From: an uncultured Gammaproteobacteria bacterium
Lineage (GTDB): Bacteria > Patescibacteriota > Patescibacteriia > SBBC01 > CAIJZX01
Reading direction: 5' to 3'
NCBI GenBank assembly: GCA_964383765.1
Contig: CAYLHT010000004.1
Location: 3,539 to 67,538 of the forward strand
DNA: 64,000 nt
The notes under the pieces were generated by a model. That model had not been told where the DNA came from. It saw nothing but the letters and a program-made list of their open reading frames with translations, and did no database searches. Positions 2,481-58,083 of this stretch are shown piece after piece. Numbering within the stretch: position 1 is the stretch's first letter; every line of letters begins with the position of its first letter. The translations under genes and the position numbers were made by a program.

Positions 2481-3920
2481 TTACTTTTCTGTTCCCCGTT
2501 TGGAATTTGGTATTTGTGATTTGGATTTTGCTTCCGCCCTCAACTGGATATGTGCCTCCCGTAAAGTTTGAGGCGGAAGCTCACTCGGCGCGCCCATCAT
2601 CAGGTCCCGCGCATCACCGGTTTTGGGAAAGGCGATGACTTCGCGGATGTTTGGTTCATTGCGCAGTAGCATCACGATTCGATCATACCCCCAGGCAATT
2701 CCGCCGTGGGGGGGCGTGCCAAACTTGAAGGCGTTCAGCATGTGGCCAAAGTTGGCTTCAATTCGATCATCATCAAAACCCATGATTTCGAACACCGCTT
2801 TCATGGCCGCCGGTTCGTGATTGCGGATTGAGCCGCCGGCGATTTCAAAACCATTCAAGATCAAGTCGTATTGGCTGGTCAAAATCTTTTCTACATTCTT
2901 TTTTGCCATTAAGTCCGAATGGAATTCCGGTTTGGCCGCTGAAAACGGATTGTGGGTAAACGTCCAACCACCGGTGTCGGTTTTTTCGAAGAATGGAAAA
3001 TCAATCACCCAACAAAAGGCTAAATGATTCGGATCGTTTTTATCTTTGCGAAGGTCTGGTCGGTCGGTTCCGTGTTTCTTCATCGCTTCCGCATATGACA
3101 TTCTTGGGAATGGCACTTCTTGAATCTTTTTTTCCGGACAAAGCTCTTTGACCGCCGCAATTAGAATTTTTTCATTCACCGCCATCACGTCCTCGCGTTC
3201 CACAAAACTCATTTCCATGTCGAGCTGTGTGAATTCCGGCTGACGATCGCCGCGTTGGTCTTCGTCACGGAAACAGCGGGCAATTTGGAAGTAACGTTCC
3301 AAACCGGAGACCATGAGGAGTTGCTTGAACTGCTGCGGACTTTGCGGCAAGACATAAAATTTTCCAGACTGTAACCGCGAAGGAATAATGTATTCACGCG
3401 CACCTTCCGGCGTACCCTTAGTGATGTACGGTGTCTCAATTTCAGTGAAACCTTCGGCCAAGAAGGCGCGGCGAATCACGTCGTTGAAAGTTGAACGGAA
3501 TACCAGGTTGTCGTGCATGCGTTGCGACCGGAGATCGAGGTAACGATGCGTTAAGCGAACTTCTTCACTCACACCACTGGTATCATCCAGCGGGAACGGC
3601 GGGGTTTCAGCCGCGTTCAAAATTTTTAGCGCGGTCGCCTGGATTTCAACTTTTCCAGTCGGTATCTTCGGATTGACGTTCTTGGCTCCGCGTTCCACCA
3701 CCTTGCCGGCGAGTTCAATCACAAATTCATCGCGCAAGGTTTTGGCGGTTTCATAGTCCGGGTTGTCTGGTCCAAACACGACTTGCACCTGGCCGCTCCG
3801 GTCACGCAAATGAATAAAAATAATTTTGCCCATATCGCGCCGGACATGGACCCAGCCTTTCAGAATGACCGTTTGACCAACTAAAGATGGAGTTTCGGCG
3901 GCGAGAGTGCGGGAAGTCAT
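2481..3920 (-). CDS. aspS: Aspartate--tRNA ligase (AspRS) lacking the GAD insertion domain; probably non-discriminating
   Basis: Class II motif 2 FRDEDQRGDRQPEFTQLDMEMSF and motif 3 GGSIRNHEP, plus an N-terminal OB fold. 479 aa versus about 590 for E. coli. gatCA are nearby in the window. Confidence 0.8.
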   Translation of the reverse strand: MTSRTLAAETPSLVGQTVILKGWVHVRRDMGKIIFIHLRDRSGQVQVVFGPDNPDYETAKTLRDEFVIELAGKVVERGAKNVNPKIPTGKVEIQATALKILNAAETPPFPLDDTSGVSEEVRLTHRYLDLRSQRMHDNLVFRSTFNDVIRRAFLAEGFTEIETPYITKGTPEGAREYIIPSRLQSGKFYVLPQSPQQFKQLLMVSGLERYFQIARCFRDEDQRGDRQPEFTQLDMEMSFVEREDVMAVNEKILIAAVKELCPEKKIQEVPFPRMSYAEAMKKHGTDRPDLRKDKNDPNHLAFCWVIDFPFFEKTDTGGWTFTHNPFSAAKPEFHSDLMAKKNVEKILTSQYDLILNGFEIAGGSIRNHEPAAMKAVFEIMGFDDDRIEANFGHMLNAFKFGTPPHGGIAWGYDRIVMLLRNEPNIREVIAFPKTGDARDLMMGAPSELPPQTLREAHIQLRAEAKSKSQIPNSKRGTEK

Positions 3921-9883: not shown

Positions 9884-9989
9884 TTGCCTTTGATGGATCC
9901 CTCTTTAAGACTTGACTTTCCTATTCTTTCAGGTAAGGTCTCGTCGTTAAGCCGACATCGCGCCGTCCAACCCTTTCAAGGAGTATCCC

Positions 9990-10382
9990 ATGGCCATGGA
10001 TTGGAAGCTACGCTCGTTCTGGAACGTCTATCAGCGACTGGCGCCCTTGATTGGACCGGTGCACATCGTCCGGCTCAACCCAGCCGATGGTCGCCAGCCG
10101 GTCATGCTGTGTCAACGCCTCGGCGTTCGGCTCGTCACCCGCCAGGAATACCTGGATGCCGTCTCGTCCGGTCTGACCCACGCTCCCGGATTTCCGATCG
10201 CCGTTGCTGACCTGTTCTACGACAACTGGGGTGATACGATCCGACATGGCTACTTCGTCAACCCCTACCCGAGCCCTCGTCCCGCCTGGGCCGATGAGTA
10301 CTACAATTGGAGGCAACGTCGCGTCAGACGGCCGTTCCATCAGCTCTGGCGTTTCGCCGTCGCTCGGGTGGCCACTGTGTAG
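9990..10382 (+). CDS. Hypothetical protein in a GC-rich, foreign-looking module
   Basis: Upstream TTGACT-16-TAAGGT promoter-like element and an AGGAG SD 7 nt before the ATG. High-GC codon usage. No known domain. Confidence 0.5.
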   Translation: MAMDWKLRSFWNVYQRLAPLIGPVHIVRLNPADGRQPVMLCQRLGVRLVTRQEYLDAVSSGLTHAPGFPIAVADLFYDNWGDTIRHGYFVNPYPSPRPAWADEYYNWRQRRVRRPFHQLWRFAVARVATV

Positions 10383-10450
10383 CCATCAACCACCGCTTGG
10401 TTTCATGACCTGGCGGTGTTTTATTGCTTGCACCTTTCGTTCCGTTGAAA

Positions 10451-11431
10451 CTAGTCTACGTGGATTCGTTTACGATAATCAGCAATCATGGGAATCCGAC
10501 TGACATACCCTGGATACATATCGACATAATGCCCGCGCAGGTCTTCTGGCTTCTGCCCGCCATACCGACCGGCCAGCCGCTCGTACTCGAAGGCCGGCGT
10601 TGTGAGATCGCCGCCCCGCACCCATTTTTCGCGTAATCCGGTGGATCCAATCGGTCCATGCGCCTCGATCGCTCCGATCCAGATCCGTCCCTCGCCATCG
10701 CGGCAAAAAATGTAGGTAAATTTTTCATCGTTCGAAGGCAGAGCCTCCATCTCGACCGGTCCGTATAAGGTTGTCGACTGACGCCAACGCTGTCCGTGGG
10801 CACGCATATTTGGCATCTGATTGAGATCGGAGAGCTTGACCTTCTCCGGTTCAAGTTTTCCACCCACCCGAAAGTATTCTCCGGTTAACTCAATCGCTCG
10901 ACGGTCGACCTGATTCCGGTAGGTTTGGGATCGATCAATCGCGTGCGCCGTTCCAGCTAAAACTAAGTCTGGATGTTCAAGTTCCAGGGCTGATCGTCCG
11001 CTGATGTCTGCCAACCCAGGCTGCACTAACGTAGGAACAGTGACGCTTTCTTCACTGTACCCTTTCGAGTACCACTCCACCTTTCCATCGTGTGAGGTGT
11101 AGGTAGGTAAATAGCGCCACAGCCCGTGAGAGTTACTTAAGTAATAGCTGCGAGCGACGACGTTCCCTTGGTGTTCAATATACGCCACGACCGCCTTCCG
11201 ACCTTCATGCAATGCGTATGGATCAGACGACAGCCAACGAACGCCCTCTGACTCGGCCAATTGATGGCGCGGTTGTAAGGATAATTCGCGCAACGTGGCC
11301 TGGTCGAGCTCAACCCCATAAAACGGATCGCCGTGGATTTCGGTTCGTTTAAGAGTCTCAGCTTGCTCCGCCAGCGAAAGTTCTTGAACGGCCTCGGGTG
11401 GCAGTGATGGTTGGGGTTCACGTTCGGACAT
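10451..11431 (-). CDS. Hypothetical protein in the same GC-rich module, convergent with the previous gene
   Basis: 326-aa ORF with high GC third positions. No recognised domain. Confidence 0.5.
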   Translation of the reverse strand: MSEREPQPSLPPEAVQELSLAEQAETLKRTEIHGDPFYGVELDQATLRELSLQPRHQLAESEGVRWLSSDPYALHEGRKAVVAYIEHQGNVVARSYYLSNSHGLWRYLPTYTSHDGKVEWYSKGYSEESVTVPTLVQPGLADISGRSALELEHPDLVLAGTAHAIDRSQTYRNQVDRRAIELTGEYFRVGGKLEPEKVKLSDLNQMPNMRAHGQRWRQSTTLYGPVEMEALPSNDEKFTYIFCRDGEGRIWIGAIEAHGPIGSTGLREKWVRGGDLTTPAFEYERLAGRYGGQKPEDLRGHYVDMYPGYVSRIPMIADYRKRIHVD

Positions 11432-11549
11432 GGATCTGAGTATACACCAATTCAGAATACTACGAGCTGATCAAAGCATCAGAATGGATCCTGCCGATAA
11501 CCGTTGACTATTTGAACGCTTTTAGTTATTCTTGCTTACTGAAAAGTAT

Positions 11550-11621
11550 GGGTCCCTAACTCAATGGTAGAGTATCAGCCTTTTAAGCTGAGAGTTCTGG
11601 GTTCGAATCCCAGGGGACCCA
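11550..11621 (+). tRNA. tRNA-Lys (anticodon UUU)
   Basis: Cloverleaf: acceptor GGGTCCC/GGGACCC, D-arm ACTC/GAGT, anticodon stem TCAGC/GCTGA with loop CTTTTAA, T-arm CTGGG-TTCGAAT-CCCAG, discriminator A. CCA is not encoded. Confidence 0.85.
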
Positions 11622-11784
11622 CTAACGTCGGCGAAACCGACATTAATAATTTACTGCGTAGTCCGGGTACGGTCACAAAACTGTGCCCCTGGGACGAGAA
11701 GGGTTGAAGTGAGCTAGTCGAGCCAGGCTCGACGCAGCGAACGATCGGCGAGTTGCCGGTGGCAAGTCGCCGCAACCCAGGACA

Positions 11785-11806
11785 GAGTCCCAGGGGGGGC
11801 CACTAA
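11785..11806 (+). repeat. Partial direct repeat of the tRNA-Lys 3' end (gagtcccagggggggccactaa versus gaatcccaggggacccactaa); possible degenerate att remnant
   Basis: About 19/22 identity to tRNA positions 11600-11626, 165 nt downstream of the tRNA. Several small hairpins lie between them. Confidence 0.25.
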
Positions 11807-11859
11807 TTGAGACAACTTTTTAAGAAATCGCCGAATCTCGGCGAAGGTCTGCATAAACA

Positions 11860-12429
11860 ATGAGTTCGAAAAAGACTCAGGGCCAGGCGCCAGAACGGAG
11901 AATAATAAAGCTAAGAGCTGAGATCGAATCGATTGAGTCTTTCTTTTATGGTGCCAAAGATGGCGATAATGATGATGCTTTCTTCATGTTGAAGATAAAA
12001 CGAGACAATGTTATCAGAGGCATGATATTGGAGTTACATTTATCAATCGAAGATCTACTCAATGGCGTCATCAAAAGCCACATTCTAAGTACAAAGACTG
12101 GGAAAGAGCTGGTTGCTTCTTCAGCGGTTGACGAGTTGCTTGTTGGTGAGAGGGCGATGGGTTTTAAGCAGAAAATAATCTATCTGAAAGCTGCATCATT
12201 GATTCGGCCTCAACTTTTCAATGACTTAGATACATTAAACCGACTAAGGAATAAAGCAGGGCACAATTGGACACTAAATCGCGTTATTAGAAAAAAGATA
12301 AAGCGGAATAAGAGGAAAAGGCCATTGCTTGAATATAAGGGTCGTAATTTGTATCAACATGAAGTCATCAAGGAATTTATTGCCCACTACGGAAGGATTT
12401 ATTATCGCTTGTGGCTGAAATTCGCTTGA
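11860..12429 (+). CDS. HEPN-like domain protein (possible Abi/toxin-type RNase) in an AT-rich segment next to tRNA-Lys
   Basis: 189 aa. C-terminal RLRNKAGHN fits the HEPN Rx4-6H motif. AT-rich codon usage contrasts with the neighbours. Confidence 0.4.
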   Translation: MSSKKTQGQAPERRIIKLRAEIESIESFFYGAKDGDNDDAFFMLKIKRDNVIRGMILELHLSIEDLLNGVIKSHILSTKTGKELVASSAVDELLVGERAMGFKQKIIYLKAASLIRPQLFNDLDTLNRLRNKAGHNWTLNRVIRKKIKRNKRKRPLLEYKGRNLYQHEVIKEFIAHYGRIYYRLWLKFA

Positions 12430-12548
12430 AATCATTCAGCTTGGGTCAATCAGTCCGATACAGTGGTGGAAAGTAGAAGTCATCGGCTTCAAACAACCAA
12501 GTTCGAAGACGGATGCAAGAGGGTTCACCGTTCGGTATATCACGGGCT

Positions 12549-48368: not shown

Positions 48369-49112
48369 ATGCCCTCGCCTATTCGTGGGTCAACCAAAGA
48401 GTGCTTGGCGCACTACTTTGCTCAGCTGCCGCCGACCAGTCAACGGTCCGGGGTGCGCGCGCGAACGCCGCTGATCCAGTATTGCGGCTGCATCCGGCGG
48501 ACCGTTGCCGATTGGCAAACCGGTCCCCTGCCAGTCGGTGTCTACTTGATCAAGCTTCGCTTTTTTTTGGCGAGCCAAGGATACACCGTCACCGAGTTGG
48601 AGAGTTTGCACCCGTTGGTCCGTTCGCTCGGCTTGATCCTGGCCGAGGGGCGAGCCACGCTCGAGGAATTGCGTCTGGCGCTGGGGTATTCGGACCAGCA
48701 AGAAGTCTTGACGATTCTTCGAGGTAAGCAGAAGCCATACCACCTGGAACAGCGTCTGCAACCACTGGTCGACCGTTACCGAGCGGAACCGAAACCCCCG
48801 GCGACCGGAGTGAAACCGGCCAATGGTGGCGCCGTTCGGGCCACCCCACCCTCAATTCCGGGCGTGAATGGAAGTCAGAAGGGTCTCGTCATCAAGACGC
48901 TCGGCGCCATGATCAAGGCCATGCTACCGCTTGCGAAAGCGGTTGAAGCCAGCCCATTCACCGTCGCCGATCGTGATGCGCTGCATGAGTTGCTGCCCGA
49001 GAACGAGATGTTCCATCTGATCTACTCCCTCAAGCGGCTCACCAGTGAGACCGCTCGACGGGACATCCCACCTGAAGCGCAATCCCACCAAGGAGGAGAC
49101 CGTGGGCGATAA
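48369..49112 (+). CDS. Hypothetical protein, first gene of the high-GC three-gene island
   Basis: AAGGAG SD 7 nt upstream of the ATG. High-GC codon usage. No recognised domain. Overlaps the next gene by 11 nt. Confidence 0.55.
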   Translation: MPSPIRGSTKECLAHYFAQLPPTSQRSGVRARTPLIQYCGCIRRTVADWQTGPLPVGVYLIKLRFFLASQGYTVTELESLHPLVRSLGLILAEGRATLEELRLALGYSDQQEVLTILRGKQKPYHLEQRLQPLVDRYRAEPKPPATGVKPANGGAVRATPPSIPGVNGSQKGLVIKTLGAMIKAMLPLAKAVEASPFTVADRDALHELLPENEMFHLIYSLKRLTSETARRDIPPEAQSHQGGDRGR

Positions 49113-50817
49113 CGAGCTCAAAGGCGTCAGCCAGTTCGGCTTTCACATGGGTAACACCATGGCCAGCATCGCGGCCGAGTATCCGCTCCTGCACGACGTC
49201 ATCAAGGAGTGTGTCCAGAATGCACTGGACGAGGACGCTCGACAGATCACGATCGTCGTCAACCTGCGCACGCGGCGGGCGGCGGTGCGTGACGATGGGA
49301 ACGGCTGCAACCAGTCCAAGTTCGACGCGGCGCTGCTCCAGATCAATCAGTCGTCCAAGCTCAAGAAGCGGTTGAAGCTCGGCCGTTTCGGCAAGGGTTT
49401 GATCTCGCCGTTCGGCAAGGGCAAGTACTTCACGTTCACGTCGTGCCCCAAGGGCCGCAACCGCGACTACATCGAGTGGATGTTCGACACCGATGAGATT
49501 ACGCATCAGGCGCGGACCAACACCATTCCGTTCCGGAAGCGCACCGAGCTGATTCGCGGCCTGGAAGGCATCCCGCCCAAGGGGTGTGCTCTCCGGTGGT
49601 GGTCGACCGAAGTGGCGATCGAAGAGATCACCGAAGACCGGGTCATCAGCAAGGTCAACGGTGAGAGCCTCGTGTTCGACATCCTCAAGACCTTCGGCCT
49701 GGCGATGCGGTTGAAGCAGACCGAGATCCAGATCAAGGTGATCAACGAGGATGGTCGGGACTTCGAGCGGACGTTCACCGCCGACGAGCCCACCGGCCAG
49801 CCTCTGCCGGTGGTGGAGTTGGCGGACAAGGACGCCGGCATGGTCACCTTCCGACTGGCCGTCGCTCGGAAAACCGAGCAGGGTCGGCGCGGCGTGGTCT
49901 CGGTCGGCGAGACCGATGACCTCTACCGTTTCCGATTCTCGAATCTGCGGATGCAGGCGAACGAGTGGTTGCCCAAGGAGGCCTTCGACGCGCTGACGTC
50001 CGGGTTCTTCGAGGGTGAGATCACGGCCACTGGGGTCGAGCTGCAAGCCTCGCGCAAGAGCTTCAAGCCCGGCAACGCGGTGGTCGGGTTCTGCGCGGCG
50101 CTCGAGGAGTGGTACAAGAAGCACGGCGACGCGATCTTCACGGACTTGCGCGAAGAGCGTAAGGACGAGGAGTTCGTGGATTCGGCCCAGCGTTGCTTCA
50201 GTGTGCTGAAGGGTATGCTGGGGCTGCCGCAGTTCCGACACCTGAATGAGGTGTTGGATGCGGCCAAGTTGGGAACCATCGGTCCTGGGCACAGTCGCAA
50301 GGGTAAGCACATCATCGGTCAGCAACCGGTCGGGGCCTACGCTCACAGTTCCGAGCACCGGGCCGCGCCGGGTGAGTCGACGCGGGAGCGGGGGGAGCCG
50401 CGGCATGATCTGCCCAAGCATCACCCCTTCTCAGTCCTGAGCGAGAGTGGGCGCAAGCGGTCGATCGTTTCTGATGACAGTCTCGGCCTGCAGATCGTGG
50501 CCGTCGAACTGGACCAGGAGACGTTCTGGGAATACGACCCAACCTGCGGGCTGCTGAGCATCAACCATCTCTACGGCGCCTGGCGCCAGGTGGAGAAGGA
50601 TGCGCGGATGCGAGATCGTCTGATGCTGTTCGCCGCGGTCCAGGCGCTCTCGCTGCATTCCATGCCGGATGATTACCAGACGACCCAGCGCCTGGTGCTC
50701 AACGCCATGGTCGACCCGTATACGTTCACCCTCGTCAACGCCGAAGCCCTGTCGGGGCGGCGACGCGGACGGAGTGAACCGAAGCGGGCGGTGGCCCAGA
50801 TCAAGCGTAAGGCTTGA
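49102..50817 (+). CDS. GHKL-superfamily ATPase, MORC/Hsp90/MutL-like (HATPase_c_3-type)
   Basis: In-frame GTG start with an AAGGAGG SD 6 nt upstream. Bergerat motifs: N-box ECVQNALDED, G1 DDGNG, G2 GRFGKGLISPFGKG. About 571 aa from the GTG. An intrinsic terminator follows. Confidence 0.65.
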   Translation: MGDNELKGVSQFGFHMGNTMASIAAEYPLLHDVIKECVQNALDEDARQITIVVNLRTRRAAVRDDGNGCNQSKFDAALLQINQSSKLKKRLKLGRFGKGLISPFGKGKYFTFTSCPKGRNRDYIEWMFDTDEITHQARTNTIPFRKRTELIRGLEGIPPKGCALRWWSTEVAIEEITEDRVISKVNGESLVFDILKTFGLAMRLKQTEIQIKVINEDGRDFERTFTADEPTGQPLPVVELADKDAGMVTFRLAVARKTEQGRRGVVSVGETDDLYRFRFSNLRMQANEWLPKEAFDALTSGFFEGEITATGVELQASRKSFKPGNAVVGFCAALEEWYKKHGDAIFTDLREERKDEEFVDSAQRCFSVLKGMLGLPQFRHLNEVLDAAKLGTIGPGHSRKGKHIIGQQPVGAYAHSSEHRAAPGESTRERGEPRHDLPKHHPFSVLSESGRKRSIVSDDSLGLQIVAVELDQETFWEYDPTCGLLSINHLYGAWRQVEKDARMRDRLMLFAAVQALSLHSMPDDYQTTQRLVLNAMVDPYTFTLVNAEALSGRRRGRSEPKRAVAQIKRKA

Positions 50818-50872: not shown

Positions 50873-51251
50873 CTTATTCGGATTCTTGACACGGGCGGTA
50901 AGCTGTGATAAGTCTGTGGCGCAGTCATCGCTCGTTGTCAAACCCTCAACCCACAGGAGGTGGTCTTCAACGACCCGTAAGAAAGCGACACCCCCGGAGG
51001 GACCTGGGATTCGAGCCACCATTGCGGCAGTTCACCCAGAGTACCTGGTCCTCTACCCTGAGGACCGCTCACTCCTCCCGGCCGGCGAGAACATCACCTG
51101 TTCCCGTCGCAACTGGCGAGGACGACGCCCACCGGAGAAAGGGCAGGTCGTCATGCTGTCCGAAATCCTCCGGTACGCTAAAGGCTGGCGAACGCGATCC
51201 GCGCGTCCCGTCACCTTGGCAGACACAAGACCCAAGACGAAAGGGTAACTC

Positions 51252-52073
51252 ATGGCTCCGAAAGCCAAAACCGCCGTGCTGTCGTTCAAGCAGATCACCG
51301 TTCCGTTCTTCGTTCGCCGCGGACTCGACCAGTCCCGGGTGGACTACTTCGTCAACCTGTACCGGTCCGGCGGAGACGTCGAACCGATCCTGGTCAACCG
51401 GAAGGGCGAGCTGATCGAGGGCCGGCATCGCCTCAAGGCCCAGGAGGTGCTCAAGCGCAACAAGGTGACGTGCATGGTCACCGATATCACCGACCGGGCC
51501 AAGATGATCGAGCTCGCGATGCAAGCCAATTCCGGCGGCGCCAAGCCGATGTCGGAAGAGGACTACATCTACAGCGCGACGCATCTGCTCGAGCTGAACC
51601 GGCCCTACCGACAGGTGGTCAAGAGCCTGATCGGCATGGGCTTGCCCGACCAGTACGCCCGTCGGCTGGTGTCGAACGCCAGGGCCAACATCGGCAAGGC
51701 CAAGATGCGGGCGGCCGCCGAGGACGTGGTCGATCGCGATGTGCCGATCGCCGAGGCTGCCAAGAAGCACGGGGTGGAGGTGACCAGCCTGCGGTCGTCG
51801 CTCCGCAGCCGGGGTCGGGCAGCCACCAAGACCGATCGCCCGGCGACGATCAACTCCCTGCTCAGCAAGCGGTTCAAGGCGTTGTCGAGCAGTAATGGTC
51901 GCCTGCTCCAGGGCCTGTTCCGGTCCTACGAGGACGGCGACGTCAGCGAGAAGACGATCAAGGCCGCCCTGACGAAGATGAAGGAGCTGCACGTCAAGCT
52001 GGGCGTGGTCATCGATGACCACGAGAACCGCTTCGCGAAGCTGTCCGGTCGCCGGATGCGGCGGTCGGCCTAG
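51252..52073 (+). CDS. ParB/Srx/DGQHR-fold domain protein (ParB-like N-terminal domain)
   Basis: ILVNRKGELIEGRHRLKAQEV matches the ParB/sulfiredoxin GxxRxxA-type core (EGRHR). 273 aa. A downstream terminator follows. Confidence 0.55.
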   Translation: MAPKAKTAVLSFKQITVPFFVRRGLDQSRVDYFVNLYRSGGDVEPILVNRKGELIEGRHRLKAQEVLKRNKVTCMVTDITDRAKMIELAMQANSGGAKPMSEEDYIYSATHLLELNRPYRQVVKSLIGMGLPDQYARRLVSNARANIGKAKMRAAAEDVVDRDVPIAEAAKKHGVEVTSLRSSLRSRGRAATKTDRPATINSLLSKRFKALSSSNGRLLQGLFRSYEDGDVSEKTIKAALTKMKELHVKLGVVIDDHENRFAKLSGRRMRRSA

Positions 52074-56727: not shown

Positions 56728-57090
56728 CTACTGATACTGTTTATCTTTGCCCCCTAGGTACAGATTAGTGTGCTTTGATTTGACGTCTTTGACCGGGAAG
56801 CGGGATTCATTCTTTTTAATCACGTTATCTATTGCCCGATCAATGTCGATATCCGAGCCGTTGGCTAACAGCGCGAGAAACCAGTAAATATCTCCGATGT
56901 TATCCTCTATTTCCTGTGCATGTTCTCGCATAACTTTTTCAAGCACTGCTGGATCCTGTTCCCACTTCACCACATTTCGAATTTCACCAATTTCTTCAAC
57001 AATGCCCAGCAGCAGATCTTTTGGATTGTGGAATTGTTTCCAATCTCGAGCTTGGGCAAAATTTTGAATCCGCTGTTGAAAGGTATTCAT
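56728..57090 (-). CDS. MazG-like nucleotide pyrophosphohydrolase domain protein
   Basis: EEIGEI and EDNIGDIYWFLALLA motifs typical of MazG-like all-alpha NTP pyrophosphatases. 120 aa. Confidence 0.55.
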   Translation of the reverse strand: MNTFQQRIQNFAQARDWKQFHNPKDLLLGIVEEIGEIRNVVKWEQDPAVLEKVMREHAQEIEDNIGDIYWFLALLANGSDIDIDRAIDNVIKKNESRFPVKDVKSKHTNLYLGGKDKQYQ

Positions 57091-57491
57091 AGTTTAGAAA
57101 AGAATTATTGAATTCAATATTTCGTCCTGGGCTCGCCTGTTCCTTCGAAACATGGCTCGCCCGCTTAGGCCGAACGCGCATGAAGCATCCTTCGACTTCG
57201 CTCAGGAGAGCGTTCATGCGCTACTCCGTCCGGCCTAAACCCCCAGCTCACCGCGTCCTTTACGATCGTAAGCGGGCTTGATTCCCAACGCCGAACTTGG
57301 CGAGGGACTGCTGCGGAACGATTCCGGCACTCACGTGAAGCACCCGAGCGTTGAGAAGCAGTGTGTTGGCCGCTGGGTCAGTTAGAGTCGGATCCCACGG
57401 GACCCGGCGATTCAACCGCCCAAGGACAGTGTATAGAACAACGATGAGACTGGGGACGCCCTGAGGATACAAAATTTTGTCTTTTTCCGCA

Positions 57492-57517
57492 AGAAAAAGC
57501 CGCCGTGTTACTGGCGG
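57492..57517 (-). terminator. Possible intrinsic terminator at the end of the membrane protein gene
   Basis: Minus-strand CCGCC-agtaacac-GGCGG followed by CTTTTTCTTG. The hairpin overlaps the stop codon. Confidence 0.3.
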
Positions 57518-58083
57518 AAGGTCCTGATGTAGGTCCAGATCATTTTCACCAAAGTGCGTTTCGAGTGATCGAGGGTGCTAATGACCGCTAGATCGTCGCC
57601 GAGAACGTCCTGACGTTCGTAGCGAGTCACCATCCGCTTGACGACTGCCCGAAAGTTGAGGTAATAGGCCGGGGACAACATACCCGCCATGATCACGAGG
57701 TGGTGGAGAAGGTACAAGCTGACCAATCCCACCAGCATGAAGATCAGACCAAGAGACCAAGCCGGAGTATTCGGCATCCAGTGTTGGATTTGGGACGCGA
57801 GCAGTTTCGGCAGGACCAGCACGATCACGATCAAGCTGCCGTTGAAACTCAGGTGATCGAGCCGCTTATCCAAGACTTCAAGGTCCGTTACATCATCCAG
57901 GAGTTTGACCAGTCGTTCCCGCTCTTCATACGACCGATCTTCTTGGTCGATTGAGAAGGCGAGGCTGAGGTCACGGACGATGGTGTACGTCATCCACCAT
58001 GGTGGCGGCCACCGCTTGTTACGATATTCAAGCACGAAGTAACTGACGTGTTTCGGAAACCGGTACGGTTGCGGCATGATCAC
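57508..58083 (-). CDS. Hypothetical integral membrane protein
   Basis: 191 aa, 3-4 hydrophobic helices. No domain recognised. Confidence 0.4.
   Translation of the reverse strand: MIMPQPYRFPKHVSYFVLEYRNKRWPPPWWMTYTIVRDLSLAFSIDQEDRSYEERERLVKLLDDVTDLEVLDKRLDHLSFNGSLIVIVLVLPKLLASQIQHWMPNTPAWSLGLIFMLVGLVSLYLLHHLVIMAGMLSPAYYLNFRAVVKRMVTRYERQDVLGDDLAVISTLDHSKRTLVKMIWTYIRTFRQ

Follow-up and report, generated by a model that had tools for sequence, protein, structure and literature searches.

Direct repeats of a tRNA 3′ end that start in the T-loop are the usual att-core geometry of tyrosine integrases that target tRNA genes, and cis-mobilizable elements (CIMEs) are usually kilobase-sized leftovers of a specific integrative and conjugative element (ICE) or integrative and mobilizable element (IME). 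MITEs, the miniature inverted-repeat transposable elements, have fixed terminal inverted repeats, target duplications of 2–10 bp and loosely defined sites, and casposons are more than 6 kb long and carry cas1, polB and terminal inverted repeats. One study of casposons describes insertion at tRNA 3′ ends with a duplication of 14–15 bp (Béguin et al. 2016, PMC5137440). Here we analysed a 64,000-nt stretch of contig CAYLHT010000004.1 (the window; positions are those of this whole stretch), in which a tRNA-Lys(UUU) gene is followed by a structured segment at 11623–11806. On balance, we favour reading this segment as a miniature insertion element without genes, of which the window carries an old and partly decayed copy and whose target is the part of Patescibacteria tRNA genes from the T-loop to the 3′ end. 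The family to which it belongs is present in some related genomes and absent from others, occurs in tandem, matches its target tRNA at both ends and has a conserved core fold; no description of it was found in Rfam or in the literature searched. The window copy is made up as follows.

11550–11622, plus strand: tRNA-Lys(UUU) gene (ARAGORN; Rfam RF00005, 73.3 bits), CCA not encoded.
11605–11625, plus strand: proximal copy GAATCCCAGGGGACCCACTAA, consisting of the 3′ part of the T-loop, the T-stem 3′ strand, the acceptor 3′ strand and 3 nt of flank.
11627–11641, plus strand: hairpin right after the tRNA, GTCGG-CGAAA-CCGAC (from folding), the 'T1' hairpin present in every family member.
11684–11800, plus strand: structured core of 117 nt, a closing helix around a 6-bp helix and two hairpins (from folding and from the homologue in locus L006).
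11686–11695, plus strand: inverted copy CCCCTGGGAC, the 5′ strand of the closing helix.
11701–11778, plus strand: inner helix GGGTTG/CAACCC (11701–11706 with 11773–11778) and the hairpins 11717–11733 and 11746–11772 (from folding).
11785–11806, plus strand: distal, degenerate copy GAGTCCCAGGGGGGGCCACTAA, of which 11787–11796 is the 3′ strand of the closing helix.

Folding of the spacer behind the tRNA gene (11623–11860) revealed strong structure, with z = −5.0 on both strands and 0 of 200 shuffles folding as well. An earlier reading of the bare sequence (the original prediction) had named the tRNA gene and a hairpin-rich non-coding stretch after it, and both were borne out, the gene by ARAGORN and Rfam and the stretch by this comparison with shuffles. 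The core folds at −66 kcal/mol (z = −6.2), with the minimum-energy structure making up 38% of the ensemble, and is closed by a 10-bp helix in which CCCCUGGGAC (11686–11695) pairs with GUCCCAGGGG (11787–11796). The inverted copy that forms the 5′ strand includes CCCCTGGGA, the reverse complement of TCCCAGGGG in tRNA-Lys, and the distal repeat is the 3′ strand of the closing helix; its partner is the reverse complement of the tRNA T-stem/acceptor junction. Equivalent target-specific inverted copies occur in all family members, and the position of the T1 hairpin matches that of the post-tRNA hairpins in loci L006, L049, L057 and L076. Searches of the spacer against Rfam returned no family at gathering score or at E values up to 10, and the tRNA alone matched.

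The direct repeat carries less weight on its own than in comparison. Alignment of 11785–11806 with 11605–11625 gave 18 matches, 3 mismatches and 1 gap over 22 columns, which corrects the 19/22 first proposed, and an ungapped search with the tRNA 3′ end at up to 3 mismatches returned the tRNA itself as the sole match, missing the distal copy because the repeat carries a gap. In dinucleotide-preserving shuffles the repeat stood out within the 225-nt spacer (p = 0.004) but less so within 1 kb (p = 0.03) and 5 kb (p = 0.08); by this statistic alone it is marginal and would not pass as real. A higher-scoring match to the tRNA-Lys 3′ end (16/18) lies 46 kb away, at 57388–57405. The 5-kb value and this distant match would suit a chance repeat, with the spacer holding mere terminator or regulatory hairpins between the tRNA and the HEPN-like gene that follows. 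Such an account is effectively refuted, and we regard it as very improbable, given the z-score of the core, a homologous element in L006 that has a perfect repeat at the same offset after tRNA-Lys, and the family-wide pattern described below. It is because of these comparative data, and not of the shuffle statistic, that we accept the repeat as real. The interval between the two copies is about 160 nt and contains no open reading frame (ORF).

A covariance model built from window positions 11684–11800 (R1) was searched against 1.2 Mb of related loci and gave a sole significant match, L006 1768–1905 (29.7 bits, E = 0.004), which begins 44 nt downstream of the L006 tRNA-Lys(UUU) on the same strand. 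This homologue was found by the covariance model alone, and blastn of the spacer against 80 dnaB-anchored loci returned nothing. At its end the L006 element has CGATCCCTCCTGCTCCCACCAT, which repeats the 3′ end of its own tRNA-Lys perfectly over 22 nt. The two tRNA-Lys genes differ in their 3′ regions (TCCCAGGGGACCCAC in the window, TCCCTCCTGCTCCCACCA in L006), and each distal copy follows its own tRNA. Measured from the tRNA, the inverted segment lies at +63–72 in the window and +50–59 in L006, and the distal copy at +162–184 and +166–188, respectively. Between these two sequences, aligned to the model's own structure, 97% of cells were paired and 17 of 40 pairs were changed on both sides, against 2–5 in shifted-register controls, and helices 2–4 of the core were 96–100% paired with 12 compensatory pairs. 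The single-stranded junctions GAGUGAG, GCAG-CGAACGA and CCCAGGACA were conserved in sequence, and the core junction motifs GAAGTGAG, GCAGCGAACGA and AGGACA were common to both elements. A second covariance model, built from the two Lys elements (R2), detected elements at tRNA-Glu in L057 (E = 0.02) and L080 (E = 0.1); the L080 tRNA is absent from the ARAGORN calls because the contig end cuts it. RNAalifold analysis of three Glu elements yielded 8 compensatory pairs from an alignment too poor for a clean consensus.

Copies of the tRNA 3′ end recur behind other tRNA genes of Patescibacteria. In a census of the 84 assessable tRNAs in all fetched loci (1.77 Mb), in which the last 22 nt plus 4 nt of flank were sought up to 600 nt downstream, 13 tRNAs (10 independent) were followed by a copy of their own 3′ end about 40–215 nt away, with local-alignment scores of 27–46; scores in upstream control regions were never above 21. 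Just two weak matches were found 0.6–12 kb downstream of tRNAs, so the phenomenon is local and not the signature of large islands. The copy-bearing tRNAs are those for Lys, Glu, Leu, Trp, Val, Gln and Gly, including the following.

L085, tRNA-Leu(CAA): distal copy matches at 23/23 positions.
L006, tRNA-Lys: 22/22.
L105 and L107, tRNA-Val(GAC): 22/22.
L146, tRNA-Gln: 22/22.
L049, tRNA-Glu(CUC): 19/20.
L057 and L076, tRNA-Glu(CUC): 17/17.
L085, tRNA-Trp: 16/16.
L059, tRNA-Lys: 19/22.
L130–L132, tRNA-Gly: 21/26.

The common layout runs from the tRNA through a hairpin, an inverted T-loop/T-stem segment, a GC-rich multi-hairpin core and the distal copy to a second terminator. The first hairpin is a canonical terminator in AT-rich genomes. 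The inverted segment is an 8–15-nt reverse complement of the T-loop and the T-stem 3′ strand (ACTTGAA for Leu; AATCGAA for Glu, Trp and Val), and the core comprises two or three hairpins, many of them with GNRA-like loops (GCGA, GAGA or GAAA). The distal copy begins within the T-loop and extends 0–5 nt past the tRNA end, which makes a duplication of 17–23 nt, and in full-length elements it lies 140–215 nt downstream. Seven of nine elements folded at z-scores of −3.3 to −6.1, with weaker values for L085_Trp2 (−2.85) and L105_Val (−1.88), and no Rfam 15 family matched any member. Every copy from the repeat scan or the covariance models sits directly behind a tRNA gene. Short versions, with the copy only 35–60 nt downstream and without a core, stand behind tRNA-Gln in L146 (4495–4569) and tRNA-Gly in L130–L132 (847–918), where the copy resembles a mini tRNA of acceptor stem and T-arm alone. 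The short versions could be what excision left behind, or else the material from which the family started.

Comparison of related loci argues for insertion, and in this respect the original prediction, which had taken the partial duplicate as the mark of DNA inserted in a tRNA gene, was upheld. Near-identical tRNA-Glu(CUC) genes carry the element in L049, L057, L076 and L080 and a plain terminator in L054, L071 and L073, and most relatives have tRNA-Lys without the element. Homology links the sequence right after tRNA-Val of L089 with the one that comes after the L105 distal copy (91.5% over a 47-nt stretch into which the tRNA 3′ end falls), which indicates that the native 3′ flank travels with the distal copy. 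The first hairpin is kept with the element (L049 versus L076, 2 changes over 53 nt), and the terminator after the distal copy is unrelated between genomes. In L085, where three element copies lie within 2 kb, the cores of the Leu and Trp elements are 96.6% identical over 58 nt while their inverted and direct ends match their own tRNAs; the tRNA-Trp gene is followed by a tandem pair, the outer distal copy of which is more degenerate (TTCCATCCCACCGCA versus TTCCATCCCCCGCA). L080 contains the beginning of a second, decayed unit.

A different arrangement was seen in L089 (tRNA-Val at 3014–3090) and the near-identical L104, which have an inverted segment and a partial Val-type core without a distal copy. 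The partial core is 92% identical over 49 nt to L105, and the native flank separates the tRNA from the inverted segment. Set against L105, the order appears rearranged or permuted.

The same data bear on a distinctly less probable account, in which the segment is a resident small RNA gene that is linked to the tRNA, transcribed after or with it, and not mobile. Its closing helix and 3′ tail would mimic the T-stem/acceptor 3′ end and be handled by tRNA 3′ processing or by a tRNA-binding factor, and its identity to the neighbouring tRNA would be maintained by gene conversion or selection. The co-varying helices and conserved junction motifs of the window and L006 elements suit an RNA gene, as do the greater stability of the sense strand over the antisense strand in 7 of 9 elements, the terminator hairpin that in AT-rich genomes follows each distal copy as it does a tRNA gene, and an AT-rich −10-like stretch, read from the sequence, just upstream of the inverted segment. 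The window 5′ strand GUGCCCCUGGG also resembles the acceptor 5′ strand of tRNA-Lys fused to the T-stem 5′ strand, a likeness that would yield a 12-bp minihelix-like stem. A fixed gene is harder to reconcile with a native tRNA flank that comes after the distal copy and not after the tRNA, with near-identical tRNA-Glu genes that have or do not have the element, with near-identical cores at different tRNAs of one contig, or with the lack of any Rfam match; the decay of outer tandem copies and the degenerate distal copy of the window argue against selection on that 3′ end.

Under the insertion reading that we favour, insertion would leave the tRNA intact, with the proximal copy as its end, and place a second copy of its last 17–23 nt downstream as the distal copy; mobility would depend on a putative enzyme supplied in trans. 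We infer that the core functions as a folded single strand, either as RNA in the sense of the tRNA or as single-stranded DNA, and that the inverted segment serves in target recognition or in building a recombination site. In a by-eye comparison, the inverted segment usually pairs better with the intact T-arm (9–15 nt) than with the distal copy (6–10 nt); the window is an exception, with 9 nt paired to the T-arm and 10 to the distal copy. This pattern suggests that the inverted segment guides target recognition or else forms, together with the proximal copy and the first hairpin, a hairpin in which the double-stranded target would be restored. A bolder version, which we consider rather unlikely, makes the element a mobile unit that finds its own target through a programmable address, the T-loop/T-stem complement acting as an RNA or folded-DNA guide. 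A recombinase in trans would then insert the element in any guide-matched tRNA gene, and duplication of the tRNA 3′ end would allow the host tRNA to survive. If true, the element would be a parallel to bridge-RNA or attC-type recombination that has no genes of its own and is addressed to tRNAs, apparently widespread in Patescibacteria.

Several points weigh against insertion as the explanation. Target duplication at a staggered cut accounts for ends that fit any tRNA, but simple target-site duplication fails to account for the target-specific inverted segment; likewise, a classical integrase whose attP includes the tRNA 3′ end accounts for the geometry but fails to account for one core gaining ends for different tRNAs. 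Structure kept between two deeply diverged genomes suits a selected RNA gene at least equally, and the covariation count comes from two sequences only. A candidate enzyme, be it a transposase, an integrase or another, was found neither inside nor beside any copy, and the data give no direct sign of excision or of strain-to-strain movement. The census drew on fragmentary contigs selected for other reasons, and the distal copy of the window is degenerate and marginal by itself.

The features around the window copy are the following.

9990–10382, plus strand: p130, a GC-rich orphan ORF outside the element.
10451–11431, minus strand: p326, a member of a conserved Patescibacteria protein family, divergent from tRNA-Lys and outside the element.
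11504–11532, plus strand: sigma-70-like promoter of tRNA-Lys, TTGACT, 17-nt spacer, TATTCT (consensus scan, pattern match only).
11828–11844, no strand assigned: 7-bp hairpin TCGCCGA-ATC-TCGGCGA, lying after the element and ahead of the HEPN start codon, terminator-like on the minus strand.
11860–12429, plus strand: HEPN189, an AT-rich HEPN-like gene of 189 aa, beyond the distal copy.

The original prediction had taken these genes and the repeat together as a decayed or remnant island. A classical remnant would be a prophage or island at tRNA-Lys, bounded by attL and attR, of which internal deletion left an arm of about 160 nt, with the flanking genes as cargo. The repeat does have the att-core geometry of tRNA-targeting tyrosine integrases, HEPN189 has the lowest GC content of the window and p130 is a GC-rich orphan, relatives show a compact ATPase, tRNA-Lys, dnaB arrangement, and in 3 of 7 contexts a HEPN189 homologue comes right after the 3′ end of a tRNA gene, one of them next to an MmeI restriction system. 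We nevertheless consider a remnant improbable, and the island was not sustained. The two copies bracket only the non-coding stretch of about 160 nt, which belongs to a recurrent family of structured elements; the same small size, architecture and homologous cores, with conserved folding, recur across many tRNAs and genomes, a recurrence not to be expected of independent random deletions. Integration at a tRNA 3′ end cannot place DNA 5′ of the tRNA, so p130 and p326, which lie on that side, are not inserted DNA, and HEPN189 lies beyond the distal copy; all three genes are outside the repeats and not part of the element. No third copy of the tRNA-Lys 3′ end was found beyond HEPN189, up to 12 kb off or elsewhere in the window. 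As had been noted at the outset, no integrase is nearby: a Pfam scan of 27 ORFs (25 at 287–23645 and 2 at 56728–58083) contained no recombinase or integrase domain. Neither p326 nor HEPN189 matched phage or plasmid collections, and a phage or plasmid origin gave way for p326 to a conserved Patescibacteria family. Two specific Glu-element junctions gave 0 matches in 2.9 million viral contigs; a scan with the 15-nt inverted segment alone was uninformative, as it matches any tRNA-Glu-like T-arm in viral contigs.

In gene order, p130 (plus) and p326 (minus) converge 5′ of tRNA-Lys, and the tRNA is followed by the 238-nt spacer and HEPN189. The ORFs at 287–23645 are housekeeping genes by Pfam, encoding ScpA, a class II aminoacyl-tRNA synthetase, Nramp, a P-type ATPase, a DnaQ-like exonuclease, DnaB, RecR, L21, SecY, Adk and Map. 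The window derives from a member of the Patescibacteria. The closest relatives of the DnaB protein, at 60–67% identity, are from metagenome-assembled genomes (MAGs) of Patescibacteria (Falkowbacteria, Uhrbacteria, Magasanikbacteria and Moranbacteria). tRNA-Lys(UUU) lies 111–2350 nt upstream of dnaB in 23 of the 80 dnaB-anchored loci. A P-type ATPase gene stands directly 5′ of the dnaB-linked tRNA-Lys in L012, L019, L026 and L060, and directly upstream of dnaB in L003, a short contig with no tRNA called. Compared with these compact relatives, the window has 3.2 kb of additional genes on either side of tRNA-Lys, and p130, p326, HEPN189 and a PMT_2 glycosyltransferase were present in none of the dnaB-anchored loci. 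Because relatives keep the compact P-type ATPase, tRNA-Lys, dnaB arrangement, the flanking genes are lineage-specific. The compact neighbourhood that an island would predict was thus found in relatives, but it reads as ordinary gene turnover at 60–67% DnaB identity and is no evidence of an island. In an independent assembly (Logan SRR12313479, locus L001), p326, tRNA-Lys and the spacer are identical in sequence to the window. Across L002–L081 the tRNA-Lys(UUU)–dnaB linkage is conserved, frequently in the order tRNA-Glu, tRNA-Lys, tRNA-Thr, dnaB, with the tRNA in either orientation, and many of the dnaB-locus MAG records are labelled 'uncultured Gammaproteobacteria' or 'Bdellovibrionales' despite DnaB proteins that group with Patescibacteria.

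The convergent gene pair had been described as GC-rich and without recognisable domains. The genes do converge, and p130 is GC-rich (0.618, z = +2.1, fifth-highest of the 73 window ORFs), but p326, at 0.542 (z = +0.3), is average; searches of Pfam, NCBIfam and PADLOC found no domain in p130, p326 or HEPN189. p130 has no homologue among 5.8 billion proteins and shows a coding-like GC pattern over codon positions. A Shine–Dalgarno-like AAGGAG stands 7 nt before its ATG, and a promoter-like TTGACT/TAAGGT pair and, after the stop codon, a hairpin and T-run were read directly from the sequence; a consensus scan listed no p130 promoter, Shine–Dalgarno sequence or terminator. The p326 family is represented by 21 homologues in databases and by 66 loci from metagenomes, and its conserved core spans about 290 aa. 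The AlphaFold model of p326 is confident and beta-rich (pLDDT 88, pTM 0.87), and a Foldseek search found no similar chain in the Protein Data Bank (PDB), with all TM-scores below 0.2. Contexts of p326 vary, and its family occurs in many different chromosomal ones. It adjoins an element-bearing tRNA in three lineages (the window, L085 and the L105/L107/L089/L104 group). A general link of p326 to tRNA genes was rejected: a tRNA was adjacent in 4 of the 5 first contexts, but most of the 66 further loci had none, which leaves the link a weak lead. Among loci L084–L154, many p326 homologues have N-terminal extensions of 100–250 aa and some a C-terminal extension, and in L084 the homologue follows a cluster of genes encoding type IV secretion system (T4SS)-pilin-like proteins.

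HEPN189 is AT-rich and HEPN-like, as originally proposed. Its GC content of 0.396 is the lowest of the 73 window ORFs (z = −3.1), and across 56 homologues R130 of its RNxxxH motif (Rx4H-type) never varies, with conservation of at least 90% at N131, H135 and W137. Likeness to the HEPN superfamily rests on this motif, a confidently modelled all-helical bundle (pLDDT 94) and weak matches: profile matches to Csm6 (PDB profile search, E = 0.04), HepT and HepS, and structural matches by Foldseek, best to MtlR (probability 0.98, TM 0.40–0.46) and YggD and weaker to HepT. It differs in reaching no Pfam HEPN family threshold; within its family, HepT-like and DUF4145 match just 2 members each (E about 0.004–0.008). 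Relatives number 139 at 50% clustering and are mostly solitary genes, and the contexts inspected showed no conserved partner (an MNT antitoxin, for example). Members lie directly 3′ of a same-strand tRNA in 3 of 7 independent contexts, Lys in the window, Leu(CAA) in L082 and Met in L161, for which a rough binomial p is about 0.001 if the base rate, itself estimated, is about 3%; the L161 homologue adjoins an MmeI restriction-modification system. No plus-strand terminator was found between tRNA-Lys and HEPN189 in a consensus scan, so HEPN189 may be co-transcribed with the tRNA. The spacer was rejected as an RNA partner of the HEPN gene: the regions upstream of homologues (L082, L083 and L155–L162) share no structure or sequence with it, and they fold at z of about −1.3. 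No att repeats were found around the homologues in L161 and L082. In L082, a 122-aa ORF overlaps the start of the homologue. A motif, AGTAGGGTCCTRTG, is shared at 13 of 14 nt upstream of two homologues (L155 70–83 and L161 226–239), both about 40% identical to the window protein, and is missing from the window; it could be a regulatory site or a chance match.

Two further regions of the window stand apart. Positions 57092–57507 form a 415-nt GC-rich, ORF-free stretch about 370 nt after tRNA-Pro(GGG), between a MazG-like gene (56728–57090, minus) and an unannotated ORF (57508–58083, minus). Its folding is strong on the minus strand (z = −4.8) and weak on the plus strand (z = −1.9), and no Rfam family matches it even at E = 10. 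Within it lie TCGGATCCCACGGGACCC, which agrees with the tRNA-Lys 3′ end at 16/18 positions, and CCCAAGGACAG, similar to the Lys-element junction CCCAGGACAG. It may be an RNA of unidentified type or a larger relative of the tRNA-linked element. The long ORFs 49045–50817 (plus) and 51069–52022 (minus) have a very odd codon-position composition (GC3 0.84, z = +3.5; GC1 0.86); the cause may be a wrong frame or strand, or a foreign origin of the region.

About one in eight of the sampled Patescibacteria tRNA genes carries an element of this family. The elements at least account for many of the 'tRNA fragments' and long structured spacers of these reduced genomes, and they are relevant to the annotation of tRNA genes and the delimitation of islands. 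For organisms with very small genomes, a conserved folded core with target-matched ends poses the question of which enzyme reads the target, and how. If the inverted segment acts as a guide, the family would be a new natural system of addressed DNA insertion; were the elements RNA genes instead, they would form a new class of RNAs imitating the 3′ ends of tRNAs.

Among known systems, tRNA-targeting integrative elements likewise keep the tRNA intact, leave a second 3′-end copy downstream with a duplication that starts in the T-loop, and accrete in tandem with older outer copies decaying. Flanking direct repeats (18/22 in the window) and, for the family at tRNA-Glu, an empty site were both found here. 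Unlike those elements, however, the family has about 100–215 nt between the repeats, without an integrase or kilobase-scale cargo, and it has a co-varying multi-hairpin core, an extra inverted T-loop/T-stem copy, and one core at different tRNAs with ends matched to each. CIMEs share attL/attR-like repeats around DNA without a recombination module and an enzyme presumably supplied in trans; the family would differ in having no known parent element and in its uniform size and structure across tRNAs and genomes. Bacterial MITEs (Correia, RUP and RPE) are also small, non-coding and folded, and some carry terminators or promoters; they are multi-copy, a trait that the three copies within 2 kb of L085 may echo, but here the duplication is 17–23 nt of tRNA and the inverted segment changes with the target. 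Casposons share the tRNA 3′-end target and an unusually long duplication; the element has no ORF, hence no cas1 or polB, and has neither the terminal inverted repeats nor the size of a casposon.

tRNA-like RNAs, such as the bacterial Y RNA YrlA and minihelix mimics, resemble the element in a 3′ end made of T-stem and acceptor 3′ strand, and the closing helix recalls the acceptor/T-stem stack; here the core replaces the T-loop, no Rfam family matches, and the acceptor 3′ strand is unpaired in most members. The compensatory changes in 17 of 40 pairs and the shared junctions, from two sequences in a model-fitted alignment, are those of a conserved structured RNA. No DEDD recombinase was among the Pfam hits of the scanned ORFs, and no IntI- or Xer-type site was identified. 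The IS110 bridge RNA, the integron attC site and the folded attP of CTX phage may nonetheless be likened to the element, with its structured non-coding segment of about 120–180 nt, its target-complementary stretch and an inverted segment that could pair with the proximal copy in a hairpin reproducing the double-stranded target, in what would be a resemblance of logic only.

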